DNA of 58,224 nucleotides, counting the filler, from Sphacelaria rigidula (Eukaryota), in the NCBI GenBank assembly GCA_964200075.2. It is 2 parts of 2 records of this genome, joined end to end, with 100 filler letters (N's around TTAATTAATTAA, not from the genome) between each part and the next. Parts side by side here need not be neighbours in the genome. Positions count along the whole stretch, not along the records: positions 1 to 29,111 come from CAXNAA020000089.1; 1 more part is not named here. One strand, given 5' to 3'. Positions 1,744-32,652 of this stretch are shown here, one piece after another. Made by a program: the position numbers and the translations under genes. A model generated the notes under the pieces. That model was not told the origin of the DNA and ran no database searches. It saw only the letters and a program-made list of their open reading frames with translations. Every line of letters begins with the position of its first letter. Position 1 is the stretch's first letter.

Positions 1744-1791
1744 CCGCTCGACTGAGGAATAAACGGGCTCCGCTCGACCTCCTGGTTGCTG

Positions 1792-2210: not shown

Positions 2211-2458
2211 GACACTTTCTACGATAGCCCCCCCCAAAGCCAGCCCAAAAGTGTCACGAAACAAATGGCCAAACAGCGCCTGATGTTTGGGCCCAGGCTA
2301 CATGAAGCGCCTCATATTGGCGACATTGGCTAGAACGAATCCAAGCGTAGGAATTTCCAGCTGCTCATCGTGCTCGGCTTTTCCCACTTCGATTTACGTG
2401 AAGATGTAGCCTCCGAAAACCATGCACTTTTGGGGGGGGGACTATCGTAGATAGTGTC
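2211..2458. mobile_element. MITE, GACAC family copy 1 (248 bp), 4-bp TSD ACAC
   Basis: TIRs gacactttctacgatagcccccccc / gggggggggactatcgtagatagtgtc. ACAC occurs at 2207-2210 and 2459-2462. Orientation is reversed relative to copies 2 and 3. Confidence 0.95.
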
Positions 2459-6080: not shown

Positions 6081-6330
6081 GACACTTTCTACGATAGTCC
6101 CCCCCCCCAAAAAGTGCATAGTTTTGGGAGGCGAAATCTTCACGTAAATCGAAACGGGAAAAGCCGCGCACAACGAGCGGCTGGGAATTCTCACGCTTGG
6201 GCTCGTTCTCGCCAATGTTGCCAATATCAGGCGCTTAATGCAGCCTGAACCCAAACATTAGGCGCTGTATTGCCATTTTTTTCGTGGCATTTTTGGGCTG
6301 GTTTTGGGGGGGGCTATCGTAGAAAGTGTC
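6081..6330. mobile_element. MITE, GACAC family copy 2 (250 bp), 4-bp TSD ACAA
   Basis: TIRs gacactttctacgatagtcccccc / gggggggctatcgtagaaagtgtc. ACAA occurs at 6077-6080 and 6331-6334. The body aligns with copies 1 and 3. Confidence 0.95.
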
Positions 6331-9265: not shown

Positions 9266-12101
9266 GTGAAACGGAGAGCGTTCGCTGACGATCAAAACAA
9301 GGAGGCTCGCCTCCTTCGTCAATCAGCCAAGAGTCTCCGTGAAGCGGCACTCCAGTATCAGCAAGCCATACAGCAGCACAATTCCACGGCAGAACAATCC
9401 ACCGTGCGAATTTCGGTTTCTCAATCATCGTTGAAGGAACAGTTGCGCCAACCACGGCTACTCACCCACGATTCCGTGGGGTCAGCTGATGAAACTGAAC
9501 CTTCATCGACTACCCCGGCACTGCCCACAACCGCTCCCCCCACAGTGTCTAACATAACCATGGGTCTCCCCTCGATGCCGTTGCAGACAACTGCAACGGG
9601 ATATACGACCTTGTCTCGGGTTCCACCCACGTACAGCAGCAACCAGCCCCCCCCCCTACGACATCCCCTCCCCAAACATGGTCCCCGTCATATGCTACGG
9701 CGGCTACCACATCGACAGCTGTAACTCACGCAGCCCCTAAAATCGTCCCTAAGGATCCTCACTCACACACACTGGATCTTTCTGGTGTGGAGACCTTGTC
9801 GGGTGTCCCACTATACGATTTCGTTCATGACCCCCCCCAACCTTTTGTCGTATGCATGTCACAACCGGAGACCTACCGTCCCTGTGATTGGCGAAGCTAG
9901 AGACTTGCTCACATGGTTCCCCCACCAGCGGAGAACCGCCACACTCGCAGGCGTAGTGCAAGCAGTTCAGTCTCAACCTCTATCGGACATGAGTCGCGAA
10001 ATATGTGACGATTACGTGCAACCCCTCATCGAGCTGTTCAATGAAATTGAGCAAACACGCGCTACGTTTTACGAACACGGCAAATTCATGACAGCACAAC
10101 AGCTGCAAAACACAGGTGGTATGAACCGCCTTTACGGTGATCGAGCCCAGACGAGTAGTACGGAGATTAAGTTGTCGGAGGGTGTGGATGGATGGCACAC
10201 CCAAGGGAAGAAGAAGAACAGGATGAAGGAAAGTACCGTGACCACGGGGACAAGACACCCGCGATCGCACCGCCCTCCAACGTCTGTTCATAAATCCACT
10301 ACACCCCTCCAGTCTGACAGTGACTCGATCAGTACGGGATGTTCAGATGAAAATGCACGTATCCCCACCTCCCGTTCTGCGCCGCCTACGCTCGCCGATT
10401 TTCTCCCTCTCTCGTCTAATGTCGCCAAACAGCGACACGCGGCAATCAAGATCAAGAGGGAACCCGAAACCACTCAAAACACCTCGAAACACGTTCAACT
10501 TGCTTCCTCTACCCCCTCTCTTCCACCTAACAGCCCTTCTCCGCCCCCCCAGCCCCGTAATCTATCAAGCGTGCGCTGTGCATACCTAAATTTGGATCTC
10601 AAGTTTGTGGGCAAGGTCAAGCCTTCCCTTCCGTTTCCAGTGGGATCAGATGTAGGTCTGTCGTGTAGTCAACTACGGCAACCCTTGACAACCGTAATGA
10701 GTGATATTCTGTCAATCTGTGACAATCAATTCGTCGACCTGCAGTCTAGTACGTGGGTCGACGGATGGCTCCGTCCACTACACCGAGCACCCGAAGGTGC
10801 CCTCGACTTTAGTACTCCACAAGCTGCGCAGTTGTATACGATGTTTGACACTCTCGTCGACCAAGTCGCTCGTAACCTCACGCTCGGTACATGCGGATAT
10901 GAGGCTTTCACGTCGCTACTCAGATTGATCAGTTCATCACTTGATACAAGCCATGAAGGTGAATCAACTGAAAGCCTTCTCACGCTCAGGGTACCGGTGG
11001 ATACGCCATTCGACCAGTATCTCAAGGAATTCTGTCCGTTGATATCTGTCATGGTTGACGGGGTTTGTGAGCTCGCCCCTACAGAAGAGATGGTGATGAG
11101 TATTTTCCGTTCCAATATGGAACGACGGTATTCTAGCCTGATGCCGACTGTATTTATGGGTGAAAAAGCAACCGCTTCAGTTCCATACCCTGACCTCGAT
11201 AGTATGTGGAGGCAGTTTGATGGATTGCGGTCAAACCGGACTCCGGCGATAGACGTGACGGATGCGAAGCAAAATGGCACCCCTGCAAGCGGCGGCACTG
11301 CCCAGGCTTCCGTCACTCCGCCGTCCTTTTCGGTAGCTGCACCTACTGTGTCACGATCGGAGCCGATACACCCCAAAGCGAGTCAACCGGCGTGGTTTCC
11401 TGGGTCCATGTCCACTACTGGTGAGGTCATGTTCACAGCCCCTGTACAACACCCTGACGCGTTTGCCAGTCAATTCCTCAGTTGGCCCTTTGCGGCCGAA
11501 ATTTGACCTGAGATTTTCCAAGTTAGCACTTCCATGAACAACTCGGATCCCCCCCTCTAGGCTCGGGATGTAGACCCTGACCTCAGGTCTGGATTGATTC
11601 GCAACTGCAAACACCGCTGTCTAAACTGTGGCATTTCGTTCGACGAACAGACGGGATACTCTGCGGACGGTCGCGTTCCGATGCACTCAACGCGCAACTG
11701 TGATGAACCTTTCACGAACGCATTTGGTGTACTTAACCCGATGTTCCTTAACCCACAATATTCACACTATTGACGGACTTGGCAAGCGCGTATGCATTCT
11801 TACCGTCGCCCTCAATCTGGTGACGGCCGCATTTCACACCAACCTCCAAGGCGCGGGAATCGCCACTATGGTAACGAACCCCGCGCACCCAACAACCAGT
11901 ATCAACAACTCTACTATCAGACTCAGCAAGCGAACGCTGGCCGCTCGAGCCTGCCCCCCCCCTCCTCCTGGCGCTTTTCACCCGCAAATGCAGACTCCGT
12001 CACAAGATGCTCGCCAACCGTTCACAGCGGGAAATGCTGCACCGGCTGAACCCCGCCAGGAAGAGAACCGTTCTTCCACTGATGCTAAACGTACCACCTG
12101 A
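9266..12101 (+). pseudogene. gag: gag-like polyprotein of element B (fragmented)
   Basis: The segment SSTWVDGWLRPLHRA aligns with DSDWVEGWQTPLHKA in element C gag. A CLNCG knuckle remnant lies downstream, followed by a basic N/Q/R-rich tail. Confidence 0.7.
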
Positions 12102-13699
12102 CGGTGTTTTGGAAATGTAGAAGTCCCCGCGTTTCCGAATAGCAAACAGTGGGGTAACCCCGAGTGTGCGACTGCTGAAGTCATAAAGCTGTCGCCCTCT
12201 ACATGTTCTACTTACAGTTCGCGTTCATTCCCCATTGTCTGCCACAGGCCCACATTGGGGAACCATACATTGATGGCAACACGCCGCGGAAGTGCCCCCC
12301 CCTTTTCTTTCGCTCGGCCAGTAGACACACATCACAAAACTGAATCGATGTCGTATGGCACAGGTTCAGGTTTGTGGTACGGGTACACTGGGCTCGATCA
12401 GACTGTTATTATGGGTTCCAAGGCAGCAGAGTCCCGTGCATCGTTACATGACCCCCAATTGCGCAACGACTAACCCCAGTGTGTTAATTCTAGAGCGGAT
12501 CTCCTAGTTTTACCTCCGAGTGGTATTAATCATAGCCAGTTGGATCCTTTCTCCCCGCGGGATTGGCAGTCATGTAGTGTAACACCTCCCGCCTCCGAAG
12601 CAGGAACATCTTTTGTCGCGGTAGCTGTTACCCCGCAGCCGTTCATTGCGGGACAATAAAATCAAGGTCACACACCAGCCCCCAAACGTGCTTAGGTGCC
12701 AAGCTAATGCCTGTTACACCCACGAACGAAATAACGTCGGTGCCCGGCCCCCTTTTATTTGGTGAGCGTACGTTTTCGAGCACAGAGCGCAACGGTGTCG
12801 AACCCTGGCTTTCCGTCGCTCAGCGGGTTGGGAAGGAACCCCAAGTAACAGCGCCGGTGGAGCGCCACGAGCGTGACCAAAGGCGGACTGTCCTTGACTA
12901 ACTCCCAATAGCCCCCGGAGCAGCCGAACCGTTGGTACGCTATACGCGTTATCCTCGGCAGGCTCCTCCGGATGACCCTGTAGATATCCCTGAAGATACA
13001 GTTGCACCCGTCCACAAAAATCGTGAACGGGTGTCGGTTTCATCAGATGAAAACGATTCTGTCGATCAGGCCGGTGTTTCTCAGATTTCGAAGAGATCAA
13101 CACTGCTCCCTGTCGACCCCTCACACACCATGTTAGAAGCCCCCTCTAAAATAGCGTTGTCATCTGTTGCGTCAGATACCTCGCTGCCACTTGGGCCTTC
13201 GCCTCCTTGTCATGAAAACCCCCCGTCTAGTTCTTCATCACAACGAAAACGTGGTGTAGTGACCGACGAGCCGTCCACGCTTGATCGCTCGTCCCCTATT
13301 TTACCAACGTCGTCCCCCACTAAGACGAGTAGCGAATTGACTACTGTAGCCAACTCGCCTCCACCCTTTGACGAAACGTCCCCTTGGTTGCCCACACTTC
13401 ATGCTGCACCTTCGCCAGCTTCGCAAACAGATGCTTCGCTACTTGTTGCGGCCGACCGAGATATCTCAAGCCAACGCCACCAGTTGTCGCGGCCAGCCAC
13501 GACAACTGTCCTTCCCAGGCATCGTCCATCCCTTACAGTGTACGAAATTCAACACTCGACAGATCCTCCACCAACTGCGACCGACACTCTGTGCCCCGAC
13601 CCACCTGCGGACAGAAATCTTGCTCCAAAGGATCACAAACGTTTGTATTTCAGCACAGTCGCTCACAATCACAAGCACGGTTTGTCCACAGATGTATTG

Positions 13700-14755
13700 C
13701 CAGAATTTGGACCGGATCTAGTCAGCGGTACTGCAATCATGGATGATGCCTCCTTCACAACGAAAATAGGTGTACATAGTGGAATGCACGCAACATGCCC
13801 TTTATGAGCTGTTGCTTTGCCCGATTCAGGCTCGCCCCAAACGTTCATCACCGCCAGCAGCTGGCAACAAATGATCCACGCGGGGGCTACGGACGCACAT
13901 TGCGTTTCTACGGTTTCCCTTCGTGTTTTCGGCGGGTTTGGTGCTTCCACTTCACTTACGGTTGATCGTTCAGTAAGACTTAGTGTGCAATTTTTCGATG
14001 ACACGGGTCCGACTGCGCGATTATCCGTATGGGCTCTCATAGTGCCCGATGGTACCATGTCGGTTGATGTTTTACTGGGGCGTGATAGTTGGCTTCGGTT
14101 TTCCACTCATACATACACGTCAGACACACCTGTTTCGCACCATCCCAAGACTGACAGGTTGAAATTGGGATATCACGACACTGCTTCGGGGGCGCATGCC
14201 TATGTCGATGATCCAACACACACAGGTGGTGCTTTCCGACTGTACTACGTTGGCGAAAATGTAACCTCCTTATCCCTTGAACCCCAATCCATACATGTGA
14301 ACCTTGTGAGACGGAACGGATCCCCTGCCCTCACTGGGCAATACTTGGCCGAACTCATCAACCCCAATCAACCGGCTGATGATGTAAGTACCTTCGGTCA
14401 GACCGAAGTATTCGTCCACGAAGGTGGACAATCCATTCATCTCTCACGTTCTCTGCATGTTTCGATTTACTCCCAGGTCATCTGTTAGGTTTTGCTCAGG
14501 CGCCCCTCCTACGGACAGGCTTGTCAAACGTGTGTCTGGCAACCGAACGGAAAGTGCCACCAGACACCTCGATCAACGCGGACTCTCCGCCGTTCGACAA
14601 ACCTCGCCCGATGGCAGTGGACGATGCGTCTAACGCACCTGACCCAAACCCCCCAACTGTATTGCTAGATAGATTATCGCCAGAGCAACGTGTTAGTTTC
14701 CCGCGTTTATGGAACAATATCCCCCAACATTTGCGACATATTGCTTTCGATCTAT
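13700..14755 (+). pseudogene. Aspartic protease plus conserved PR-RT spacer of element B
   Basis: VALPDSGSPQTFI (DSG motif) ...GGFG...VRLSVQFFD...DVLLGRDSWLRF. In-frame stop at 13805-13807. Confidence 0.88.
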
Positions 14756-14998
14756 GACTAATGCCGAGATAGCCCCACCACAAACAGTGCACCGGCACCA
14801 TCCAACGAACCGGCTGCGATCCCACTATTGGGCTCGTTTGCAGCTATTTCGCCCAGAGGCGTGTAGCAGTCCGAAATCAGCTATAACGCTCAAATCAGTC
14901 GCGTCGTGCGGCACGAAACCAGCTTTAACGGCAGTTATGATCATCGCCTCCGTGCACGTTTTTGGCCAGTTTTGGGGGGGGCTATCTCGGCAGCGGTC
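14756..14998. mobile_element. MITE of a related GAC...GTC subfamily (243 bp), no TSD
   Basis: Imperfect TIRs gactaatgccgagatagccccacc / gggggggctatctcggcagcggtc, with the same GAC-N-gatagcccc layout as the GACAC family. The flanks CTAT and ACCT differ. Confidence 0.8.
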
Positions 14999-16401
14999 AC
15001 CTTGTGCCACATTGGGTCAACGCGCATCGCACGCCAGTCTCGCCTTGCTGTGTTTTTGTGTCTTTTTGTGACATATACACCTGCACGTTGCACTGCGGTA
15101 CGTTCCGCCTGCAAAACGCAACATCCCCTGGGGATTCAGTACAGCACGGTCACACGCCCAGCCATCCCTGGCTCGCGTATTTGGTCTTGTTGCCCCCTCT
15201 TATCTGACAGGACAAGTCTTCTACTACAGGGTTGTTACAGGACATCAGTGCACAGGGTGCACTGTTGCTCACAATCAACCGCTGTTCCTGACCTGAGCTC
15301 TTTGCCAAGTCAGCCATCTGCTGCTTTCATATTTCAGTATCGAGTGTACACATCTTTTGTTCTCGGGTCGCTGAGTAACACAACCCGTGCTCCCAAAGAG
15401 GTGACCAGGGACATCTGTACACGCGATTTGTAACCGTTCTGGCACCTTCGCTGTATCGCGATCGACGTCATTCGTACCTACTTTGTTGTTGTTGTCTTCT
15501 TCTGGTGTACTTCGCACAGCTGTAGAGCAGTGCTGTACATCACCGTGGTAAGTAACAATACACATCACAATGAACTATGAGGTTTTTTCTCATCGACCCC
15601 CTCTCGGCCAAATACTAGTTAATTGTTCCGAGAAAGATTCGTCGCGATAATACTCGTTTGTAACCTTTCAGACCTACGTCACGTGCTCACTTGGAGCAGA
15701 CGGCACTCGAAACCAGTGCCCCTTGCCTGTGCACTATTTTTTTTCGGCACCCGCCCTCAGCGTTGCCCCTGCTGCGCACAACTTCAACTTTGTTTTATAT
15801 ACGTATGTTGTCCCAACTCCGTTGTGTAACAAGCTTTCGCCCTGCATTACGCAGTCCGATCTTGCGGCCTACATCCCAAGCTGTGTAGAAGCTTTTGTGC
15901 TGCCCTACGCCGCACGATCTTTCGGTGCTCATCTAAAATTTTCACTGAACACTGCCAGTCGTTTCTCAGCTTGTCTCGGGATGATACAGGTATAGTTTGT
16001 CCTTGACGTCACAACCGGAACACGTGTGAGTTGTGCTACTTTCACGTACCAACGCTGCTACAGACAATTGGATTTTCGCCTTTCCGTTGCCGTACGTCTG
16101 TTCTGTGCGCAATCCCGAGCTTCCGTTGATAGCTCTTACCGCCACAACTTAAATAGTTGTATTGATCAGACCTCCGACATTGTTGTTACATATGCAGCGA
16201 TTAGCTTGGAAAATAATTCTCGAGTTCATCAGGTTCCCAAGGTTCCTCCAGGCGCTATTAGGCTTCATTATCCCGTATTTCCGGATACAAGCTTCGTCCG
16301 TTGCACTTAGCATTTCCTTGTGTCAAGCTCCGTTGATTGGAGCCCGACGACCAGACACACTGCTCCTGCCGTTTCAAGCACACAAGTTGCGTACGACTAT
16401 C

Positions 16402-19400
16402 ATGTCGCACAGAAATAACGCTGGCTCTTCCCCTCAATTGGGAAACCAATCGCTTCGTCGGACACGAAGTCAAACCACTGGTGCTTCGAAATATTTTGAT
16501 AAGAGTGTCACGTCACCTTTAACTCTTCGACGCACGTATGCGAGCGCTGCTCGATCTTCGGGATCTGAAGACCAACCTTCGAGCGATGCTCGTTCTTCGA
16601 GGCTTGAAGGAAAGACTATGACGCCGCGACTTGTTCTGTCACGTACCGATTCGCACTCAGAGAACCGGCTTGTGCCACCGGCTGAGTCATTGGCTCCTGA
16701 CGAACATGTCAGTAAACCCATAACGGTGGATTCCGTAGCACCTTCCTCGCTGCGGCCTGTTCTTCCGAACCCCGATGTGGACTCCGAAGCCAGGATAGTG
16801 CCCCCAGCTGAGTCGTTGCCTCCGGACACACGTGTTCAGCTTGGCCCTGTAACGGTTGCTTCAACCGTGGCACCCCGTCGCATGACGGTTGACAACTCTC
16901 GAGACGATTCTGTCCCGACGAAGCATATCGCTTTTGGAGCAAGAGACTTTGTCACGCCGACTTCTTCCGTTACGGACCTCCATCGCACGACTCTCGACTG
17001 TCCCGTGCCCCCAATGCGCAGTCCAATGTCGGACCAGCAGTCGCGGCCATGCATTCTGCCCTGCAGACTCTGCATCGCACTTCATCGGCGTCGGCGCACT
17101 CGCCAGCCTCAGCTCTCATCGAGGCATTTACGGCTTTTTGCCAGGCCACGCTCCAAGACCAATCGGCGTCTGCTCACGTGCAATTCAACGATGATTCTGC
17201 ACCTGCCACGCCCAAATCCGTACGTTCGGCGCCCCGATCGGCGACATCGCGTCCTTCGTTCGTCACTCACGAAATATTCAACGAACATGAGTCTAACCCC
17301 TCCTCGACGTCAAACCAGAGTCTTGCTCGCGCTCCTGACCGGCGCCGCACACCGACAGTTGGTCACGACCACGTTACCCGTGCTGGCAGTTCCAGGGACA
17401 ACTCCCAGCGAAGCTTGAATACGTCGCGCATTTACACACGCCCGAAGAATGTCGCTCATGGTCACACATATGACGGTAGTTCACAACACAGTTCCAATTC
17501 ATCGCGCGCTTCGAAGCGCCCGATGAATGCCAACCGTGACCGTACTCACGAAGATGATTCGCGGCACAGATCAAGTTAATCGCGCGTTCACTCGCGCTCG
17601 AAGAACACCGATCATGCAACCGCGCGCACCCCTCCTGCTCCACATCTGTCATGCCGCCGTCATTTACGCAACGATAACACTGTACATGTTGACGGTGTCC
17701 AAACTATATTTTCGGATACGTCACCGGCTCTGGAATCCTCAATTGAGGGATCCGGCCGCACTTCATCACAAAACCGACGACCCCGTAATGACCGCGACCC
17801 ACCGTCTCGCTCTGACGCTGCGGTTATTCGTTTTCTTCAACAACGATTGATAGACCTCGAGCGACAACTATCAATAATGGAGAACTCAAGATCCACTGCC
17901 GCTGCCGCCAAGACTACGGCGGAGACCACCGGCGATACTGCAGCTACTGCTGCCGCCACAACCGCCGCTGCCGCCGCCGCTACCTTGGCCACTGCGCCTT
18001 TTGCCGCCCCCTCGACAGCCCCAACACCCGCTGCCGCCCCGTCTGCAGTCGATACTGACGCAGATAGTGCTCCAACCACTGGCCCGGTCGCGGATGCCCC
18101 CGTGCGCTCGCCCCCGTCTGTGGAGGATCTCCCTCCGCTCGGCGACGAGCAGTGCCCTACCGGCCTTCTATTGAGGCTGTTCAGGGACCGCCCTCCTGCG
18201 GAACAACTGGAACTCATTGATGATTATGCCTCGCATGCGCCGGCGCTGGCACAGGGCGTCCTCGAGAACCAAAGGGAGGCCGACGCCGCTGCGGCACGCG
18301 TTCTAGCCGAAGGACACGCTGCCAAGCTTCAAGACCTCCAGCGCCAGGCTACACGTGCTCAGACGAACAATTCCGCGGCTCAACGCACTCTACAGGAAGG
18401 CCACACTGATGCGTTGGCAGCTCGAAAGCGCGTCAAGGATCTCGAGGATCATGTCCGCAGAACTGCCCATGACGCGGCCACGTCGGTGGCCCGCCTCTCA
18501 AACCATCCGGCATCTCCGCCGCCCATCGATAACACGTCCGGTGGTCGCTCTTCCCGCCAGCCAACGACCGATACGTCTACTTACGTGATTCCACGTAAGA
18601 CCGACTACACGTCGTATGCTGCGGCCGCTGCCGTCCCCACGACGGCCCCGACACGCCCGCCTCGTGCACCTAGGTCGGCGGCCGATGCCCGCCTGACGCC
18701 AGGTCTGCAACTGGCGCCTCACGAACGAGTGTTACTTTCTCGTTCCGCGGCCGTTCATACCGGTCCGTTCCACAGAAGCAACCACCTCCACTGCTCCCGC
18801 GAGGCCTGGAACTTGATTTCGCAACGCATGCTCTACGCTATTGGTGTTTACGTGGAGCAGGGCGGCTTCCTCCCCGACGAAGGCGTATCGGCACTCACCT
18901 TGGGCCAACTGGTCCTCCAAATGGCTATCGGCGATCACCCGGATCACCAGCGTTACGTCCGCGTTGTCACCGATCATTTTGCGGCGCTACGTGCCGCTTA
19001 CAAACCTGATCCCGGCGCCACCATCACCAACAATGACCAAGATGAAGATGGGTGGACTCCTGCAAGTGCCAAGTGCAGGGGACATAAGAAGAACCACCGG
19101 AGGGATGATGACAACGATGAAGGAGGCTGACGTCGCCGCCACGGCGGTGGAGGATCCTCTTCGGGCGACACTGGATCGACCCGCCCGGCTCGCAATACCC
19201 GCGCAACAAAACCGGGGGTAATTCTTCCGGAACTTCCGCGACAGGCTGGAACCTGTCTGGTACAGACCTGCCTCCCTCCGGTCCGGCGACACCAAGGCAA
19301 GTGATCCCTAATTTGGCTGATATTTCAACCCGCATTTTAGGTTTATCCGATACGGACACACTTGACCGTCCATTGTCTTCTACTGCAGCCCGCGCTTTAG

Positions 19401-21101
19401 CAACCGCTGCGACTGACAAAGAACGTTCCGAACCTAGTAAAATGGCAGCTTCCGATAGAGCCGATTCTGCCCGAGTAGCTGCAATACAGGGACAGTATAT
19501 CCAGATGGATGTGAAAAGCTTTGGCACATTAAAACCATGCCTGCTGCGGATAACGAAGATTCCGCCCAGTTTACTTCTGCCCTCATCACGTCCATTCGCC
19601 GGACTGTTTGTAACATCCTTCACTTGGCGGATGCAACTGGCACACAACTTTTCGAAGATTCCGATTGGGTAGAGGGCTGGCAGACTCCCTTGCATAAAGC
19701 ATTGCCTCGATCCATCAACCGCCGCTCTCCCGACATCGCTGCTTCTTTAGCACAGATCCTCGATGGATTCCACGCCGAAATGGATCCGGATCGTGCCAAG
19801 GGGAAGACAGGCCGACACTTCCTACGATATCCCCCCCCCCCAGAAGTGCATGGTTTTGGGAGGCAAAATCTTCACGTAAATCGAAATGAGAACAGCCGAA
19901 CACAACGAGCAGCCGGAAATTCCCACGCTTGGGTTCGTTCCAGCCAATGTCGTCAATATGAGGCGCTTCATGCAGCCTGAACCCAAACATCGGGCGCCGT
20001 ATGGTCATTTGTTTCGTGACACTTTTGGGCTGGTTTTGCGGGGGGGCTATTGTGGAAAGTGTCGGCCCGGTATTACTCTCTGATTTGGAGAGGCGTTTGG
20101 TAGGTTATTTTGATAAACGTGACCAGGCCAGCGCCATCCAGAGACTGTTTATTTTGCTGTTGCATCGGATGTCCCCCTCGCGGACTATCTCTGTGAATTT
20201 AAGCTTTTGGTTTCTGATACTACGGGTGTCGGGCGCCAAAACGGACCGAGCGATGCAATGTGTCAGACTTACGTTCGCAATAGCGTTGCTCAACAGTATC
20301 CGGCTCTAATGCCGTCGTTGTTTTCGGGTGTCTTGGCGCATCGCGAGATGCCTTAAGCCTTTATTGATGTGTGGTCTGCTTTTGTACACCGAGAGGGTAA
20401 TCTAACGCCCGCCATACGTGGCAACCCTTTTACGTCTGTGCGTTTACAACCTACGGTTGTGTCCTCCGCTCATGCCCAAGGGGCTCGCGGCAGAAATTCG
20501 AGCTCATCTCGCGCCTGATGGACCCCCGATTCGGTCACCGGTTCAGTTATTCATGTTCAGAGTACCAGAGATGCATTCAGCGCGGGTTTTGATGGTTGGC
20601 CGTTTTCCCAGGAAACGTGGGATGATGTTTACTTGACTTCAACAACGGCATTCATTACCGACGACCCCCATTTGTGGAACCCACTTATTTCGTCTTCCGC
20701 TAGACGCAATGCCTCCAGCAGTCATGCCAACAGTTGCATCAACTGCAGTGTTCAAGGCCACAGTATGCACGACTACGACAGTCCATGCATTAATGCCTTT
20801 TGATCTCATGAACCCTGAATTGTAGGACAATGAACCCGCGTGGCGACGATGGCAAAAACGCATGCGCGACTATCGCCCACCTAATCGAAATTACCGCAAC
20901 AATTCGAATCAACGTGGCAACAAAAGCTCTAATCGCGATCGCCGACAAAACAAAAAACATGCAAGCCCTCGCCAGAACGATCAACATTTTCGCGACAACA
21001 AACGTTCCGCTGATAGACACCAGCGGACGGGACCGACACAAAGCTCGAATCCCAACACCAGAAACCCTGGTACCTTCACTACGGATCGCCTAGATCCATG
21101 A
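16402..21101 (+). pseudogene. gag: Large gag-like region of element C (fragmented)
   Basis: ORFs 16162-17418, 17847-19130 (Ala-rich and coiled-coil), and 19537-20309 (joined after MITE removal). Knuckle remnant CINCSVQGHSMHDY at 20735-20776, then an N/R-rich tail. Confidence 0.72.
19814..20063. mobile_element. MITE, GACAC family copy 3 (250 bp), 4-bp TSD GGCC
   Basis: TIRs gacacttcctacgatatcccccc / ggggggctattgtggaaagtgtc. GGCC occurs at 19810-19813 and 20064-20067. Removal restores the frame KGKTGPVLLSDLERRL. Confidence 0.95.
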
Positions 21102-21158
21102 CGTGCCGATGCCGGCGTTCTTCGGTCTTCCACGCCGCCGGCAACACGAGCGAAGACT

Positions 21159-21381
21159 TTCTCAATACAGCCCGCAGAGTACGTGACTAAGATTGCTCAT
21201 CCGACCCCCCCGGCATTATCCAGGAGCGGAAGTGACGGCCGTTCATATCGGCCCCCGTCTCCAACTTCCACACAATTTTCAACACAGCCCGCAGAGCCCG
21301 CGACTAAAATTGTTCGCCCGGCTCCCCCGGCACTATGCCGGAGCGCAACTGACGGCCGTTCATATCGACCCCCGTCTTCAC
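21159..21381 (+). repeat. Two tandem copies of a 117-bp (39-codon) unit in the gag-pol linker
   Basis: cagcccgcagag occurs at 21168 and 21285. Peptides TKIAHPTPPALSRSGSDGRSYRPPS and TKIVRPAPPALCRSATDGRSYRPPS. Confidence 0.9.
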
Positions 21382-22239
21382 CCCCCCATACATCGCGTAT
21401 CAGTTGTGTCACCCCGCGACTCAGACCTACACCCGGCTTTGAACTTAGTCCTTCGGTGCCGAGTATAATTTTGAGGTGTGGGAAGACCAACCGCCAGTCT
21501 CTGAGGCAAAGGCTTCCCTCAGCGACCGCACGCACAGGTAGTAGCAAGCCTTCTTCAGCTGACCCGAGTGTTGTTGATTTGTACATGACCACATCGGATC
21601 ATGTAATTTCCAGTCAGTTGGATCGAGCTCCTTCCCCGCGATTTTCAACACGCACGGACCTACCTTCGGCCGGTTCTGATAACAACAGCTCCAACATATC
21701 TTCGGCTATGACCCAACAGCCAAGCTTACCTACGGAAAGCAGCCCACAGGTTTCGCTCCGTTATGCCCCGATGTTGATCCCCATCCATGCAACTGGACGC
21801 AGTTGTGGTTTCATCCCAAAACGTTTTGGAAGTTCCCCGACCTTGGTCAAGGCGAAAGAGAAAGCCCCGTAAGCATGCCCTCACGGACGCGCGCGCATCA
21901 TCACGTACATCTCTTTCGAGCGGAAATTATCGACCTCAATCTCTCCAAAATGCGATGACTTTGAGTTAGACGACTCTATCAAGTATTCCGGAAGAAACAA
22001 ACTCACATAATTCTGACGGCACTACTTCCTCAATCGACGACTCCGGCCCCGCACAATCTGGATCCCCCTTGGACGGTGATCCCTGTCAACCAAAGACGAT
22101 CATTTACGAAATCGCGAATAGTCACTCTGACCGTGTCGCACCTGGAAATTATATACCGTCCATCCCCTTCTCTGGTGAGAAATCTGACCCACCGGCGGCG
22201 CCGTGCGTCTTTGCTGTCAGTCCCGCTGATCCTGACCAA

Positions 22240-22659
22240 CTTACCTTGCCGGAACACGGTCCGGATCTTGTCGTTGGTAAAGTTTCTGTAGATCCGGCCA
22301 CTTTCACTACACGCGTTGCGATCCATTCCGGTCCAAACGCTATCACGCCTACGAAATGCGTATCCTTGCTGTACAGCGGCAGCCCGGAAACATATATTCG
22401 TGAATCAACATGGAAACACATGAAACAGACTGGCGCTGCTACTGCAGCTGGCGAAACAACCACCCAACCTCGAGTTTGGGGCGGTTTCGGTGATTCTGCC
22501 GCACCACTGACGACACGTAAATCCGTACGTCTTAGTGTGCAATTCTTTGACAACACCACTCGATCTGCCAGCCTGGCAGTCTGGGCATACATTTTCCCCG
22601 ACAGCACAATGCATCACGTCATATTATTGGACAGAGATAGCTATATGCGGTTTAATTAA
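22240..22659 (+). pseudogene. Aspartic protease of element C (catalytic Asp mutated to Tyr)
   Basis: CVSLLYSGSPETYI...GGFG...VRLSVQFFD...ILLDRDSYMRF, colinear with the element B protease. Confidence 0.88.
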
Positions 22660-23257
22660 CTACCTACAGCACGCTTCCACCACTAGCGCCACATTCCACG
22701 TCTCGTGGAGAATTCAACCTCGAGCACTTTGGTGCTCTCCACGCCGCCCCGGCCTACAAGAGGAAGACTCAAGCAACTGGAGCTGCTCACCACCTACGGT
22801 ACAAGGGTAGCGTTGGTATTACACTCTCCGACGACCCCCAACTTCTAGAAGTTGCACTAGTTCGCCGAAATGGCAAGCCAGCACTTACGGGTCATTATCT
22901 TACCGGAATGTTACCCCGTATTGGTGCACCAGCCGACACAGAATATTTTGTGTCGGCGGGACAACAACTCCTCCCTCTTGCGGGTCATGCTAACTTGGAA
23001 CCCCGCGATGTCTTAGGAATCGCCGCTGCTCCCCTGATGCACACCCCACTCGAGACGTGCGTAACAGAGTCTGCCGCGCCAAACGCTACATCTCCGGCGG
23101 AGTCAGTCCATTGTGTCGATGAAATCTATTTCGACCTCGCCTCTTCGACTCCACCCCAGGTCCACACCGTGGATCCTGCCCAGTCAAATTCCAATCCTCC
23201 TGCTGAAGTGCTTCAACACTTATCACCAGATTCTCGGAATATTTCCTCGCACATGTG

Positions 23258-23515
23258 CACACGTCGGACAGATCATGATCTGCCTGAAACAACCAATCAA
23301 AGAAGACTCTTGGATCTGTTGGCCTAAAAACACAGAATATGTGACCCCGAGCTCAGGAAAGCCGAAGCGCAACCCTTGCGCTACTCGGCGTGCTCGGCGT
23401 CCGGCGCTGTAAGGAGAAAACATGGAAAAGGGGGGCCGAATGATCCGGATCATGATCCGGATCAGCATACTGACAAGAAGTAATATCAGACGGATCACGA
23501 TCTGTCCGACGTGTG
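23258..23515. mobile_element. hAT-like MITE (258 bp) with 8-bp TSD CACATGTG
   Basis: TIRs cacacgtcggacagatcatgatc / gatcacgatctgtccgacgtgtg. CACATGTG occurs at 23250-23257 and 23516-23523. CA...TG ends with an 8-bp TSD are typical of hAT. Confidence 0.9.
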
Positions 23516-23523
23516 CACATGTG

Positions 23524-25032
23524 GAACCAACCCGCCGCCATACATGCGCGACATCAATTTTGACCTTCATGGGCCCGGCTGGGAACCAGCAGTCATCCGA
23601 GAACGCAGTGATGTCCTGCTACAATACCAAGACCGATTTCCCCGATCCAAGACGGATCTTGGGCATTGCAAAACGCTGCCCTTTGAGGTTACCCTCCAAC
23701 CCGGCGTCTCGCCGATTTCTTCTCGGCCATACAGAACAAATCCAATCCTTACCAAGAAAGTTGACGCCATCTTGGATGCGTATTTGGGAGCGGGATTAAT
23801 ACAACATTCCTCATCTCCTTCGGCCTTGCCCCTTGTGGCCGTCCCCAACAAGGATGGAAACATACGCGTAACCGTGAATTACCAACGTTTGAACCGCGTC
23901 ACGGTGGTCGGTAAACTTCCAATTCCCCGCATTGACGAAGTCTTCGACTCCTCAGGCGAAGGAAAAATATTCAGCACCTTCGACCTCGCTTCTGGATTTT
24001 TACAGAATGTTATACACCCTGACACAGTCCCATTGACGGCTTTTTGTACCTCGTCCGGACTCTATGAGTGGCTTCGAATGCCACAAGGCACCGCCCCGGG
24101 ATGCTTTCAACGCTTAATGCAGCGCGTCATCGAGGGCCTCGAGCAGATCATGTACCTGGATAACGCTCTCGCTTTAGATGCCTCACCTATTGAACATATC
24201 CGCACTCCACGAGAATTTCTCTCTCGCCTACGCACGCACGATTTGAAACTGTCTCCATCCAAAGCTCGCCTTGGTGTGACTGACTTGGATTTCATGGGGC
24301 ATTCCATTTCGCCAGCAGGCCTGCATCCGGGTACAAAAAAAGTCAAGGCGATGACTGACTTGCCGATGCCAAGTAGCATTTCTCAACTTCGCCCATTTGT
24401 TGGGCGGACTATCCTACTACCGCAATTTTTTGCCGAATATATCTAAACAGGTCCACCCCCTTACTGAGTTACTCAAGAAAGGAGTCGTGTTTTCCTTCAC
24501 AACCGATATGGAGAATATCACCCGCGAACTACTCAAGACGCTTACCGGAAAGCCGGTACTCTGCTTTCCTGATTGGGAGGCAGTACGAGATGGCTTCCGC
24601 CTTTTCCAACTCCACACTGACGCCAGCACAAACGGATTTGGAGGATTTTTTAATCAACCTCAGGTTGATGGCTCCGTCCGACCCATCCTCTATATCAGTC
24701 GCGCTACCCTGCCCAACGAGGCCAATCGGAGCCCGCTAGAACTGGAAGGCGGAGTAATCACTTGGGCCATTAAGTGCCTTCGACAATATCTGTTTCACAT
24801 GCCCTTTGAGATCTATATGGATCACGGAGTACTCGAACAACTCGCCAAGGTTGGCGAACACAACCCGCGTGTACAACGATGGTTGGAGTTTCTAACAGCA
24901 TATCAGTATACCATTAAGCACCGTCTAGTCAAAACCAACGGGAACGCTGATCTTCCTTCCCGCCTACCCCTGCCGCCTACGGCCGCAGATTCCAGCCCGG
25001 CTTGCCGGTTAAAGGAACCCGATAAGCCTTGA
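23524..25032 (+). pseudogene. pol: Reverse transcriptase and RNase H of element C
   Basis: RPYRTNP...RVTVNYQRLN...PIPRIDE...FSTFDLASGF...YEWLRMPQG...YLDN (YxDD mutated); frameshift near 24397; RNase H motifs LHTDAS...LELE...IYMDH...NADLPSR. Confidence 0.95.
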
Positions 25033-25599
25033 ATTTACGCTATTAGACGTTTTTCAACACCCATTCACGCCCTCGACCTCCAGTGCCCGGAAACCGGTAT
25101 GCATATGGGAGGACCTCGCCCTCTAACATATGACGCCGTCTTGGTTGGGTCAAAGCCGACTACCTCCGATTTTGTCGATTTCCACACTTTCGGTAATCGC
25201 GCGAAGCTCTTCGCGGAGACACCTCCAGTCACCCACCTAATCTCCGACAACACACGCTCCCGGTCTGCCGCCCGCACCAGTCTAAGTGCCCCGCCGCCAC
25301 CGATAACACCTGCAAATTCCACGAGCCACGCAGCACATGTTCCACGGTCCAACAGACAACGCTTCGCGAAAACTCCTGCAACGTGCACCACGCGCCACGG
25401 ACAATCTCCACCGCGCACTGATACAGCCCCGCCGCCCGCACCGGCGCCGCAAACACCTACTGCTCCCGAGCACGGAACTGACGACTTAGCTCCTGCTCCC
25501 GGGACAGATATTGACGTCGGCATTTCTGCCCCGTCGCCTATTCCCCCGCCGCCTGCCCTACCATATTTGGCCGGCTCGCCAGTGGAAGGTCATCTACGC

Positions 25600-27180
25600 G
25601 AGTTTCTCGCCAGCTACTCTCGCCGCGATTGGGCTCGCGAACAGGACGCAGAACCGCTATGTCGCGCAGCCATCCGGTACTTGCAACTCGACTGTCCAGT
25701 CCTTTTTCCATCCACACGTCTGGCCTCGATTGACACACTGCCACCACCAGTTATTTCTGACGTATACGAGCTCGCGCGCAAGGCACCCTTACTACTACGG
25801 ATGAAGATCTGCATCTACTCCGTGCGTCGGCCCACGCCTTTGACAGGCGCAATTTTCACCTCAACCACGGGACGCCACGCACGACTACTCGATGACGAAG
25901 CAAGGCGCATATATGTCCCATTCTTGATGCGCCCCTGGGTCATGAAATGCTGCCACACAGACAGACTTGTCATGTCACCTTGGCGTCACCCGTACCCTAG
26001 CGCTCTTGGAACGCTTCTACTGGCGGGTTGGCATGGAAATTTCCACCCGCTTCTGGATTCGGCGATGCTTCAAATGCCAAGCCCGAAACCCTTAACGGCA
26101 GACAGTACGCTGGCCCGTCATCTCTATGGGGCTCCCCAACCAGCCAGGCCACCTTGTGTCCTTTGACTACTTCGGCCCTCTACCGACCACAAGTCGCGGC
26201 AACACCTACATCTTACGTTTCACTGACCGCTTCAGCCGCCACGCGCCCATGTACGCGATAACCGCCGCAGATTTTACTGCCGCCGGAACGGCCGACATAT
26301 TGGTCCCCGATTACATTGAGCACTGCGGTTACCCAAAGCGACTCCTTTTAGACAATGGTCGGAAATTTTGTTCAGATGTCTCTGACGGACTTTACTAGCT
26401 CCTGGGCATCCGCAAAATTGCCACGAGCGCCTACCACCCGAACGGTAACGGTGGTACCGAAAGAGTCAATCACACCATGGCCCAGATGCTCTCTATGATT
26501 GTCAATGACCGGCAAAATGAGTGGGACCTACATCTCTCGCGCATCATTTTGTCCTACAACAACTCGGTTGACGCCGCCACAGGCCTTTCTCCGAACGAAC
26601 TCCATCTTGGACGTTACTCTCGGCTGCTCATCACCGTGTTTGAGCACCACACGTTCGACGGCCACCAAGGATTGGATCAGGATCATATATCCTACCACGA
26701 GCTAGCGCATGCACGACAACGCAAAGCGTTTACCCTCGTGCGCGAACAACACGCTATCAACGCCTCGCGCCTAGAAAGATCTAACACCGCTCTCTACAGC
26801 CTCATGCATAAACGCCCCAACTGGAAGGTTGCTGATTAGGTTTGGATCTACAACAGTTTGTCGACCATCCGCCAAGGCACGAGCAAGGCAGCCAACGAAA
26901 CAATTTTGAAAACAAAGTTGTCCCTCAATGGGACAGGACCACTCAAGATCCTGACAGTCAGACCATCGTCATCATCACCGGATGATAAACCCGTCGGTGA
27001 CGAACTGCTCTATCTCGACTTGCCTCGCGACTTCCAGGGCAAGGACACCAAACCTCGCGTCTCTGTGCACAGATGCAAACCATGCACGAACCCGCATGAT
27101 ACAAGTGATATGCCCAAGTACCTGCCTGCCGGACTCAGTATGTTCTCAACAGCTACTCGACCAAGTCCCCGCCCAACCAC
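25600..27180 (+). pseudogene. Integrase of element C (HHCC zinc finger and DDE core)
   Basis: CHT..CHLGVTRTLALLERFYW...CFKCQ across frames; SFDYFGPLP...FTDRFSR...LLDNGRKF...YHPNGNGGTERVNHTM; GPL motif downstream. Confidence 0.93.
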
Positions 27181-27216
27181 GTTACAACCGACGAGGTGAC
27201 GGAACAGCCTCTTCGA

Positions 27217-27372
27217 TTGACCGTATCCGCCATCTCCGGCCACCAGATAACCCGTGGTCGAGGTGGCAAAATCGCTTTTATGTATAAGACACACTAGCAC
27301 GGTCTTCGGAGAGCGTCTTAGGAACGCAAATCCGACCTTTAATTGCACCGCCGTGCAATCCTCCTGTACTGA
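27217..27372 (+). pseudogene. Chromodomain-like module after the integrase (Trp codons converted to stops)
   Basis: The frame starting at 27181 reads LTVSAISGHQITRGRGGKIAFMYKTH*HGLRRAS*ERKSDL*LHRRAILLY*. This matches the chromodomain pattern Y.V.W.G....WE...L if the stops were W. Confidence 0.7.
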
Positions 27373-27420
27373 GCGCAATCCCAACATCAGCATCTTGCTC
27401 ACAACAAGAAATATCGCAAC

Positions 27421-27819
27421 ATGCATCGTGGCGCAGCAGCCCGCGAACTTCACCGTGATCAGGGACTACGCTTCGTCGCCGATGGTTACGAACTTGTACC
27501 CACCAAGACTTGTAATACGAAGTTCTTCGCAAACCAGCGAATACTGCCCAAGGGCAGCTACCTTTGGTTCAAAGGCAACGACAACCTCTGGTGGTTGGGC
27601 CAGACCCACTCCACTAACCTGGTTTCGGCCGACACATACATCATGCGTTTCATCGATGACCCTGGATCCATACAGCTCAAGCTCCGGCCAGTACTATACA
27701 CCACCAGCCCATCTGCACCACGCGGACCCTGGTGCCTCCAGCACCTCAAGTCCACAGGACTTCGCCGCGGTCTCCAGCGCAACATTGACCACACCTACGA
27801 CGTCCACGCCCCGCTTTAA
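27421..27819 (+). pseudogene. C-terminal Pol extension with a Tudor/PWWP-like motif
   Basis: Same frame as the chromodomain: LPKGSYLWFKGNDNLWWLGQTHSTNLVSADTYIMRFIDDPG. Confidence 0.5.
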
Positions 27820-28068
27820 ACCACGCTCCTTCGTCGCAACTGTTACCCCCCCCCCCCCCATTTTTCTGTTGCGTTGTTTGCCCTCCCTTCTCCACCAGGA
27901 CCCTCTCCTACAACATCACAACAGCGCGACCTGCATCGGACGACGATCGAAGAATTACTGAAGACGACCACGATCTACGACTGCTGGAGTTATAGTATCC
28001 CCTTGCGGCTGGCGCTCGATCTCGTTGGATCACCGATTTTCAGATTTCTGATCTTGCAATTTTTTTGC

Positions 28069-28195
28069 ACCTTTGGACTCCCCCAGATTGAAGCTCTGCT
28101 CCCTGTTGTACCTTTGGATTCCCCCAGGTTGAAGCTCCTCTTCCTGCTGTACCTGTGGATTCCCCCAGGTTGAGGCTCTGCTCCCTGTTGTACCT
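28069..28195 (+). repeat. Tandem repeat, about 3.1 x 41 bp, in the 3' non-coding region of element C
   Basis: Units resembling acctttggattcccccaggttgaagctctgctccctgttgt start at 28069, 28110 and 28151. Confidence 0.92.
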
Positions 28196-29111
28196 CCCTG
28201 TTTTTCCCCCTTAGTTTTGCTAGGACGCCGAAGCAACTTGTGCTTCTTCGTTGATCGCTAGCACGCGCAAGCAGTTTGTGCTTCCGCGTTTCGGAGCAGT
28301 TTTTGTTTTTGCTCCTCGAAGCAGTCTATGCTTCCCTTCTTTTGAGGTGTGGGAGTGGGTACGGGAATGTTGGTGCGGGAGTGTTTCCTTTTGTATGCTT
28401 CATTAGCCACTCATGACTTTACGAGTAAAGAAAACCTTACTTTTCGCTGCTTTGAGGATAAACCCGCGCAGCTGTAATAAAGGGTCGTCTGGGTGGATTA
28501 GTGTCATGAAGATGCATATTAGCCTGTTGCCATGCCGCTTCAGACCCATCGTCGAGTCTGGCTATCGATATTTCGGATATTCCGGTATCCAAGACTGCAG
28601 GTCTGTTCAGAGTTGGTCGGGTACGAATATGAGCTCGTATATGGTAGAGATGATGACGGCTGGATCTGCACAAAAGGCAGATCTAGCGGTTACCGTGTCA
28701 CTACTCTCTTCTACCCTCTTCCGGCAAAGCAGTGTAACATCGGTGAGACTGATTGACTGAGCGTGAGATTGGATTGATTGATTGGATAATAAAAGGTAGA
28801 GGCCAGAGAATGAACAAGAAGATACAACCTGCGAGTGAGATCATTCTGAGGCATTTGCCATTTGCCGAACTCGTCTTGTGTGAGTCGGTTTCTGTTGTTC
28901 TATCTGGCTGTTCAGCCTACGGACTGGACCGTTGCCTCGTTTTTTGAGCCTGTGCTTGCCATAACAGCACCGTAACCTCATTTCAAAAAACAACTAATTG
29001 TGCGAGTTGAGATTTCACTCCGAGATGAGGTTCAAGCCCGAAACAGTGCTTTCCCCCCACTTTCAGCGATGGTGCCCAATGACGTTTCGTCGGCCTAATG
29101 CCCCTCGATCG

Positions 29112-29761: not shown

Positions 29762-31047
29762 TCACAGACCATTCCAATAGGTCCCTTCTCCCGGTTTCTT
29801 CCGCCTCCCGATCGACTCCTTTTCTATGGCGTTAGACACCCTCTTCGCACTCTCATTATTTTTCTCACGTAAGTCTTATAGACATCCGACTTCCACCTTC
29901 CTTCTTTCTGCGATATGTCAGACGATATTCCTCCAGTTGAAAGTTGAGTAGCCCCGCAATATGTAGGGAGTGCAATGCGTATTCATACGGGTTTGCTCCC
30001 GCCGCCGCTACCAACGTCCGTAATGCTTTGGTGGCCTGACCCTGGGTGCACCAGACGGGTACCCCATCGCCATGTAAATACGTCATTAGCGGTGAATCTA
30101 CGGGCAAAGTCGGGAAACGAGGCAACAATTCCACCACCACATCTACCGCTCCTAGCATCAGAGAATTCCTATGGTCCGTATTCTGACTGGTGGAACGTTT
30201 TGTACGTGTAACGATCGCCCCCCGTCTCATGTGGTCACCTTTGGATGCACGAAAGCGTACCTCAACGCGATCAGCCAAAAACCAGAACGGCCATTCCAGT
30301 TGCCGCTCCTCATGAAATAATGCTACGTCCTTCCTACGCAAGCAATATTCAGGATGTACGCGATGTTTGTTCTCAGCAAACATTTCGGATGCGCGGGTTA
30401 GAAGGAAATATGACATTCCAACACCCAAAAATAATACCCAGCCCCCAGGTCCCCATTGCGACAACAGCTTTTCAGCTGTGCATAACATCGCCCAGATATA
30501 GGGCGCCTTACTGTTGGTTGGTTCCCGACCTCGGTGTGACTGCGCTCGCCCCTTTTAGCGTTTTTTGCACCAAGGCGTGCCCAACAGGTAAATCCAGGTT
30601 GAACAATATCTGGTGGAAATACTTAACAGATGCTAAATGATTTCCAATTGTTGCTGCTTGTAACCCGTACACTAAGCAGGCGTAAGACGCATAAGATAGA
30701 ATAACATTCACATAACCCATTGTATTTTTCCCTTGAAGCAAAAAATCTGGGGTATTCATGTCGCGTCGGAAGCGAACGAGTGACCCAAGATATCCTTCGT
30801 AAGTCTGCTCAGACGTTCGCGCAATGGATCCTTTTGCAAACTTGAATCCAAAATGTTGGAACAAAGCTGGATCCCCGGGTCTTTTATCACTAGAGTTTTG
30901 CATCCCCAATGATCCTGGCACAAGCGGCTCGCGTTCGCCAATAGTACGGTCTGCTTGCGCCAACGCGTCTCGAGCTAGCTCCCTCAAGCCTCCTCGACGT
31001 ATCTCCGTAACGCGCCGCCCCGTATCCGACACCGTAGGCCCCACCAA
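29762..31047 (-). pseudogene. Tyrosine recombinase (frameshifted)
   Basis: N-terminal SIARTSEQTY...TIGNHLASVKYFH; catalytic part YFLLTRASE...FRASKGD...YALHSLHI, then after a frameshift GATQL...EGRWKSDVYKTYVR...PGEGTYW, stop at 29762. This is the R/K/HxxR/W/Y layout with HxxR mutated to HxxH. Confidence 0.92.
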
Positions 31048-31068
31048 TCCTCGGCGGAGCCAGTACCC

Positions 31069-32652
31069 CTATCCAGATGTCAGCGGTGCATTCTCACCGG
31101 TCGCTGCCGTTGGTCCTCCTCCACGGGCGATACCCCGACCTCCGGGGGCCGTACGTGCCGCGGAAGTTTGGCTCGTGGTGCCCGCACCCTTACCCGCCTG
31201 TGCATCACGATCCTGAGTACCGCCCCCTTGTCCACCTTCACCGGCTCCGGCCCTCGCAGGTGCCAAACGACGGACTCCCTCTGTCTCCACCCCGGCTCGG
31301 TTACACCCCAAACCTTCGACGTGGCGGTATTTTCACTGCTCCTCGGTGAGCGCGCATTTCCCGTCCAACCACTTGAAACAAGTGAGGTCCCGCTTTGCGG
31401 CGGGTGTTGTCGCCGCCCGTTTTCTTAGGTCAGTCCCACCGCCAGTCGGGGCACTCCGTTTTTTGCGGTCTTGCTCAAAATCCTCCTGTACCGGCATATA
31501 TCCCGAATCGAGATATTGTTGCAAAGTCGGGGAGGTTGGGACTGACATCATCGGTATGCTTGCTGCTGATGGCGGCGGCGAGTCGTGTCGAGCCAGGAAA
31601 ATATCGGACTCGTTGGTCATGGCCTCCGTTCATCCCCGCTGGTCCGTGTTGATCATTTTCTCGAATATTGCAGATTTGTCTTCGACCAGCACAGCGCGGG
31701 TCATCGCATACATGCGAAATGTCTGCAATACCTTGTCAAACGCTGCTTCTAGCCGGGATATGCGCTGGTTGCATGAAGCCGACTCTCCGTCAGCCTGAGA
31801 GTGGCTAGCCTCAAGGCCGGCACGTAACAGTTTTGCTATTCCGTGCTTCACCAGCGCCAGGCGGTCGACGATCGAGATTGACGTCGACGAGTAATATCGG
31901 CTACGCCCACCGAAATCCATCCCGTTGAACCCACCCATTTCCGACGGGACCGTGAAGACGTTGGTAGTAACGAGAAGGATGTCGCCCATAGGGCCCTGCA
32001 GTTCGCTCTTCGTCATTGCGTGTGGCATTCTCCCGCGCAACACCCAGATCACACGCGTTTGTGTTTTCTTCCAAGCGTCCACTCGTGTCTTGTGCTGGGC
32101 TTTTTTATGGAGGGGTAATTCTTCCGTCCTTTCACCATCGAAACCTGGGTGTGGAAGACCAGCAGCAGAGTACGGAGATGATGATGATGATGCCAGTAGC
32201 CCCGTCGCGAATGCGGGCTGGTGGCGTCTACTCCCGGCGAAGGGTCCCGCGGCTTCGGCGAAGGCAGCTGGCATGGTGAAGGGGCTGTATGCTGGATGCC
32301 GTTCTGGCGATGGGAACTGTTGCACGAAGAGGTTGTGCTGTTGCCAGGCAGCCGACGACTATTGCGGCGGCGCAGCGGTGTGACGGTTGAGGGGGGCGTC
32401 CTTCAATCCGGCCCGCTGTTCAAGGGCCTGTGCGAAAGATGGTCGGTTTTCGTTGCGCATATTTGACATCGCTTGATCGTTCTCGCCCCGCATGGTGTTC
32501 ACTTCGCGGCTAAGCTCCTCTATCTGTCGCCTGGAGACTGTATCCACAGCCGGTGCGACTTCCTCTTGTTCTCGGTCGTACTATTCCTGGTCCGCGATGT
32601 CATCAAGGGCACCGGCGCCGCCGGTGCTCAGGGCGTCAGCCTGTTTTTCCAT
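31069..32652 (-). pseudogene. gag: gag-like ORF with a CCCH zinc finger (one frame, four internal stops)
   Basis: ORFs 32359-32547, 31630-32325, 31333-31620 and 31069-31311 share one frame with an ATG at 32652. Finger CFKWLDGKCALTEEQ*KYRH at 31321-31380. Confidence 0.75.

Follow-up and report, generated by a model that had tools for sequence, protein, structure and literature searches.

A brown-algal Ty3/Gypsy lineage whose integrase ends in a chromodomain and a predicted Tudor-like barrel

Results

A degenerate Ty3/Gypsy element in Sphacelaria rigidula

The window, by which we mean the whole 58,224-nucleotide stretch of S. rigidula DNA that was analysed (two parts of assembly GCA_964200075.2 joined by 100 filler letters), contains a Ty3/Gypsy LTR retrotransposon of ~14 kb (Table 1). 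Its pol follows the Ty3/Gypsy order of protease, reverse transcriptase (RT), RNase H and integrase, with the protease assigned by likeness to relatives, and its 3' LTR shows the TG...CA terminal direct repeat when compared with the 5' LTR of another copy (L031). A second LTR was sought within the window and none was found, leaving this copy without a 5' LTR of its own. A proline-rich spacer separates RNase H from the integrase zinc finger, and both Integrase_H2C2 and rve are matched in a natural copy (P0002). The ORF1/gag-like region has no significant Pfam match, NADAR is not matched upstream of the protease region, and no Rfam family was found in 14000-29111. Three tandem 41-bp units lie in the 3' untranslated region (28065-28195), and their number varies among copies.

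Table 1. Features of the retrotransposon, in window coordinates
Feature	Position	Strand	Basis
Ty3/Gypsy LTR retrotransposon, degenerate, 5' LTR missing	14998..28985	+	Colinear 77-90% DNA matches of other copies, 14998 to ~28980
Foreign inserts in the element, ~250 bp each	19814-20063, 23258-23513		
ORF1/gag-like region, end approximate	17580..20900	+	ORFs; position ahead of pol; role inferred
Protease region of pol	22198..23264	+	tblastn to intact relatives P0205, P0211, P0200; likeness to relatives, no Pfam match
Reverse transcriptase and RNase H, frameshifted	23535..25030	+	RVT_1 E 1e-15, RT_RNaseH E 2e-23
Integrase zinc finger and catalytic core, stops and frameshift	25879..26840	+	rve E 9e-7
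GPY/F-like module, then frameshift	26840..27145	+	W-x-G-P-F motif of other copies, by eye; no Pfam match
Chromodomain fold, four stops in window copy	27208..27378	+	Chp1 structure match; Pfam Chromo in alignment rows
Conserved basic helical linker	27379..27486	+	Model helix 76-93 (27406-27459); charge over 31 tails
Tudor-like SH3 barrel of five strands, preceded by a short strand and a helix	27487..27747 (core 27559-27681)	+	Model; PHF19 Tudor profile and Foldseek
Natural pol stop codon	27817..27819	+	Same position in 26/29 scored loci
3' LTR, ~484 bp, TG...CA	28502..28985	+	Aligns with 5' LTR of copy L031; 3'-end homology among copies stops here

The window holds other mobile-element sequences. 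Directly upstream on the plus strand (9725-14754) lies another member of the clade, truncated to a gag-like ORF and a protease region, which ends at a 250-bp repeat (14749-14998). Three copies of a 250-bp repeat lie at 2211-2461, 6081-6332 and 19814-20063; this repeat is also inserted in further copies of the element. On the minus strand, 577-3402 is another degenerate LTR element with a zinc knuckle, and frames at 30508-32358 resemble, by eye, gag and tyrosine recombinase of a DIRS/Ngaro-type element. The clustering of such elements in the window is not evidence that integration is targeted.

The original prediction described one reading frame past the integrase core that encodes a chromodomain, a helical linker and a second, Tudor/PWWP-like domain. 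The frame is there: frame +1 from position 27181 matches the quoted motifs exactly and closes at the TAA of 27817-27819. In the window copy, four in-frame stops (27295, 27319, 27340 and 27370) interrupt it, all within the chromodomain part, and a frameshift at ~27118-27145 separates it from the integrase-core frame. Because of these lesions the window copy is unable to make the tail, and it is dead.

The tail frame itself is not a chance reading, since its last 148 codons are matched at 71-100% identity in all 150 genome places scored (of 968 candidates), 26 of the 29 loci that were scored (from 30 fetched) share its stop position, and the frame has 529 relatives at E<=0.001 in a representative library. 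The element family thus has at least 150 copies in the genome, and its nearest named relatives are in Ectocarpus sp. CCAP 1310/34 and Pylaiella littoralis. Two library proteins (P0029 and P0256) have tail pieces joined to host-like gene models (a WSC/TIMP protein and a kinase), which are either mis-joined models or exonised fragments.

Predicted folds of the tail

Single-sequence searches of the tail returned no Pfam family for the window frame and no PDB hit, and a natural copy matched Pfam Chromo at E 0.12. We describe the tail from an AlphaFold2 model of a natural open copy (L025, P0003) that is colinear with the window frame, using an alignment of 108 rows (P0003, nine proteins, and 98 of 150 listed relatives). 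The model has a pLDDT of 90.9 and a pTM of 0.81, and it predicts the chromodomain, linker helix and second domain of the original reading, in that order and at the positions in Table 1. Model residues 10-66 form three strands and a C-terminal helix, as in a chromodomain, and superpose on the Chp1 chromodomain with Z 6.8 and rmsd 1.7 over 53 residues; the first 12 rows of the structure search are all chromodomain or chromoshadow domains (Z 6.2-6.8). Pfam Chromo is matched in 12 of the 108 rows, with a best E of 2e-4. The linker helix is basic, with a median net charge of +6 over 31 tails.

For the second domain (residues 103-189), the model shows a strand and a helix followed by the five strands of an SH3-like barrel, as in Tudor domains, and the barrel folded alone has a pLDDT of 85.7. 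The alignment profile matches the PHF19 Tudor domain at E 0.005-0.008, and Foldseek places the PHF19 and PHF1 Tudor domains first (E 0.015-0.03, rmsd 2.0 over 45 columns). The SH3-like fold expected for 27541-27700 is thus predicted, with Tudor domains as its top matches at weak E-values. No fold match of the barrel reaches E<=0.001, and in a wide structural search (VIA) Tudor, spindlin and PWWP barrels tie with TraI, KOW and other SH3-like barrels at Z 5-6.7; for these reasons Tudor ancestry is likely rather than proven. ESM Atlas matches for the barrel are leads under 0.9.

The PWWP half of the Tudor/PWWP proposal did not survive. The helical bundle that follows a PWWP barrel is absent from the model, which has at most one 5-residue helix of low confidence there; Pol ends 12-41 residues past strand 5 in the 30 tails, out of 31, that could be scored, and none of the 108 rows matches a PWWP family. 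An origin of the barrel by duplication of the element's own GPY/F module is not supported either, as no profile similarity between the two was seen (0.8%, where the positive control itself reached only 9%).

The tandem is retained across the lineage and is under constraint

To find Pols without reference to the tail, we used just the integrase core and GPY/F region as query and obtained 88 long Pols, 36 of them close to the window's element and 52 more distant. Of the 24 close Pols that extend to the chromodomain, 22 also match the barrel profile, one partly; the chromodomain and barrel profiles were built from the family itself, so these counts measure membership and not fold. The two Pols without a barrel look broken from their sequences: P0215 stops inside the last helix of the chromodomain, and P0225 departs from the family pattern in the linker. 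No close relative, then, ends cleanly right after the chromodomain. The remaining 12 close Pols match neither module, and the two of their ends that were inspected stop in or near the GPY/F region. A sister group with ~50% RT identity has an open Pol of 2,075 aa with the same tail. In the S. rigidula genome, an apparent subgroup with a chromodomain only was rejected when its members proved to be frameshifted or contig-cut copies. In the 52 more distant Pols the barrel is absent (0/52, best E 0.32), and hence it is not generally needed. One of these 52, P0256, is a fragment of the window's lineage in a host gene model and ends just past the chromodomain.

We next consider selection on the tail. 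We compared five open copies of the window's subfamily with two of a second subfamily, which gives 10 non-independent pairs; of 13 candidate loci, 2 did not pass the frame filter. Between the subfamilies, dN/dS is 0.11 for the chromodomain, 0.15 for GPY/F, ~0.19 for the barrel and 0.26 for the linker. These ratios indicate that the barrel, like the chromodomain, is under purifying selection. The barrel value within the subfamily (0.17) was set aside because the copies had been picked by barrel similarity. The same data bear on the idea that the barrel is a passenger evolving neutrally, a piece of host sequence picked up by the element and of no use to it. In favour of this idea, identity between groups A and B is lower in the barrel (24%) than in the integrase core (44%), which means faster divergence of the barrel. 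Against it stand the low dN/dS and fixed stop position, and the retention of the tail in open Pols of 1,600-2,400 aa and in both sub-lineages. To judge from the sequence comparisons, selection has already largely refuted this idea, and we consider it very improbable.

The barrel is also found at the end of three homologous proteins of 612-832 aa (P0080, P0199 and P0107; ~29% identity over the aligned length) that have no integrase or chromodomain, joined where the barrel unit begins. The barrel module seems, on this comparison, to move alone, and because it also ends non-integrase proteins it can evidently function apart from an integrase. One query with the N-terminal part of P0107 found no match in the S. 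rigidula genome. A profile search for long Tudor-bearing proteins, restricted to 1,450-4,140 residues, returned one protein.

Neither domain has a canonical methyl-lysine cage

The original prediction proposed tandem Royal-family readers of chromatin. We scored cage positions in sequence register over 31 natural tails, 27 from the main group and four from the sister group. In the chromodomain, the middle position is W in 31/31, the first is aromatic in 0/31 and the third in 3/31, so that the family has one of the three aromatics of the group I (HP1-type) cage (Y24, W45, Y48). The same W-only pattern is seen in group II chromodomains, which are without Y24 and usually without Y48 (available text of PMC3350952).

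The barrel was compared with its best profile and Foldseek match, the PHF19/PHF1 Tudor, whose cage in PHF19 is given as W50, Y56, F74 and Y80 in the accessible part of PMC7105160. The position of W50 is aromatic in 0/31 tails, as is that of Y80, which was extrapolated beyond the HMMER alignment. At Y56 the main group has W (27/27) and the sister group Q (4/4); at F74 the main group has F in 23/27 and the sister group has M or L (0/4 with F). The family barrel, in sequence register, therefore has two of the four cage aromatics in the main group and none in the sister group. It further differs from PHF19/PHF1 in an extra N-terminal strand and helix and in a long loop before strand 5.

These residues bear on the reading in which the tail is two canonical readers of methylated histone lysines, perhaps H3K79me2 or H4K20me3, that steer integration. 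The nearest solved structures are methyl-lysine readers, the main-group barrel keeps aromatics at Y56 and F74 together with D at D76 (26/27), further conserved aromatics nearby could complete a variant pocket, and both marks are tied to repeats in Ectocarpus (available text of PMC12477816). However, the first and third chromodomain positions, W50 and the extrapolated Y80 of the barrel, and the whole sister-group pocket speak against it. With most cage aromatics missing, canonical methyl-lysine reading is not supported, and we regard it as improbable.

What both groups do retain is W137, D159, W184 and a basic residue at 156 (P0003 numbering). These are not cage positions, which favours a structural or nucleic-acid role without targeting, in which the barrel would bind element cDNA or RNA or aid intasome or particle assembly. 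Integrase C-terminal domains are DNA-binding SH3-like barrels. When the barrel alone is searched with VIA, the TraI relaxase barrel comes out on top (Z 6.7, rmsd 3.9 over 80), level with Tudor domains. On the other side, sequence profile and Foldseek both place the PHF19/PHF1 Tudor first, the barrel shows no profile similarity to the GPY/F module given the modest positive control noted above, and none of the more distant Pols carries it. A structural role is, in our judgement, a secondary possibility, and a somewhat doubtful one.

A NADAR-less branch of a described brown-algal clade

In the available portions of PMC12477816, four Gypsy lineages are described in Ectocarpus, three with putative chromodomains and one with a Tudor domain. 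Lineage IV (Gypsy-12_Ec32 type) carries NADAR and a putative C-terminal chromodomain (PMC12477816). We placed the window's element in an RT tree of 49 rows, with five short or poor rows dropped, built by a quick method without bootstrap. One 29-row clade (SH-aLRT 100) unites the window's element with both groups and with the NADAR Pols. NADAR is carried by 10 of the 36 close Pols, and all five of these that reach the chromodomain also have the barrel. The NADAR Pols include CAB1104650.1 from Ectocarpus sp. CCAP 1310/34, and lineage IV is similar in length to the window's family (12-14.5 kb for long gag-and-pol families). The link to lineage IV rests on NADAR and on the named Ectocarpus proteins, and Gypsy-12_Ec32 itself was compared by description. 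Since NADAR is not matched in the window or in the fetched copies of its family, we assign the family to a NADAR-less branch of the lineage IV clade and not to lineage IV proper. In the text available, the tail of lineage IV is described with a chromodomain only (PMC12477816).

NADAR occurs at only two places in the S. rigidula genome, both on the 56-kb contig C4 (L051, L052, L081; G000:C4), among long open frames unlike the window's retrotransposon. This region is perhaps an inserted large DNA virus.

A Tudor-bearing Gypsy element has already been published: Gypsy-10_Ec32, called the first transposable element with a Tudor domain (accessible text of PMC12477816). Like the window's family, it is a brown-algal Gypsy element with a Tudor-type barrel at the integrase C-terminus (PMC12477816). 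A separate Gypsy lineage in S. rigidula ends in a PTM/DIR17 Tudor of canonical type (PF21743 in 19/19 rows; 99 matches of 150 scored), and it is probably of the Gypsy-10 kind. We take cd20401 to be a PTM-like Tudor. The RT of this lineage is 25-32% identical to that of the window's lineage and forms its own clade in the tree, its tail is not alignable with the window's tail (0.2%), and PF21743 is matched by none of the 108 rows of the window's tail alignment. On these grounds we dropped the identification of the window's family with the published Tudor lineage, which appears, from the available text of PMC12477816, to be another one.

Between GPY/F and Tudor, the PTM/DIR17-Tudor lineage (L084-L102, L133-L145; for example L135:468-971:-) carries a conserved segment with an apparent pattern of three strands and a helix, as in a chromodomain. 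In a profile comparison it scores 0.9% at E 0.06 (positive control 9%, E 0.004); it has no PDB hit, and its ESM Atlas matches are leads under 0.9. A further Gypsy lineage (L106-L132) has only a chromodomain, with all three cage aromatics, and its Pol ends ~25 residues later; it is possibly ECR-like.

The original comparison with chromoviruses is a loose one. A chromodomain follows the integrase in chromoviruses (group I MAGGY type and plant group II), Chronos and ECR-1, as in the window's family; however, the Ectocarpus chromodomain lineages are reported, in the text available, not to be chromoviruses (PMC12477816). Unlike these elements, the window's family has a second barrel after the chromodomain, and ECR-1, unlike the window's family, keeps all three cage aromatics (available text of PMC11541908).

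We did not find a chromodomain and Tudor tandem on an integrase in print, in a search of mostly open-access literature. It is not found in the available portions of PMC11541908, 10.1101/2021.11.30.470311, PMC12786077, PMC5348765, PMC3013669 or 10.1101/2022.12.06.519325, and the word "Tudor" does not occur in those of 10.64898/2025.12.07.692804. A Tudor domain on a Gypsy integrase is published (PMC12477816), for what appears to be another lineage and without a tandem. The tandem is a lineage-wide and apparently unreported domain architecture inside a described clade.

Discussion

Known targeting domains occupy the C-terminal end of integrases. In this lineage, Pol ends with a GPY/F-like module, a chromodomain fold, a basic helix and a Tudor-like barrel. 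We propose that this tail may be a two-part tether of the integrase to chromatin that works through non-canonical surfaces and would bias insertion, a proposal that we consider about evenly poised between right and wrong. After reverse transcription, the tail would hold the integration complex on host chromatin, either by contacts of the basic helix and barrel with DNA or a nucleosome, or by contact of the cage-less chromodomain with a chromatin protein. By analogy with the cage-less plant group II chromodomains, such contact could bias the choice of insertion sites.

Several published observations are consistent with a tether, each taken from the portions of text available. Plant group II chromodomains without a cage still localise to heterochromatin (PMC12786077), and Tudor domains can bind nucleosomes mainly via DNA (PMC13285377). 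Ectocarpus is reported to be without H3K9me and H3K27me3 (PMC12477816), which fits the loss of the HP1-type cage. Other observations count against a tether. Even where the chromodomain is intact, it does not predict targeting to centromeres in brown algae, according to the accessible part of 10.64898/2025.12.07.692804. The fold matches are weak, the barrel is not consistently basic (net charge -5 to +6), and it is also found on proteins that have no integrase.

A bolder extension takes in the PTM/DIR17-Tudor lineage. Two unrelated brown-algal Gypsy lineages would each have built a chromodomain-plus-Tudor tandem, and their tails would read nucleosome-core marks (H3K79me2, H4K20me3) through non-canonical pockets, steering insertion in hosts without H3K9 or H3K27 methylation. 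We offer this as a long shot.

Our analysis adds to what is published on the domains of a major brown-algal Gypsy clade, and it suggests that an integrase captured a Tudor-like domain a second time, independently. In algae without the usual silencing marks, chromodomains alone do not explain the choice of insertion sites (available text of 10.64898/2025.12.07.692804). The tail of this lineage, small, predicted to be well folded and with altered pockets in both domains, could be expressed alone and would give a direct handle on that choice, and chromatin maps are available for Ectocarpus, which has related elements.
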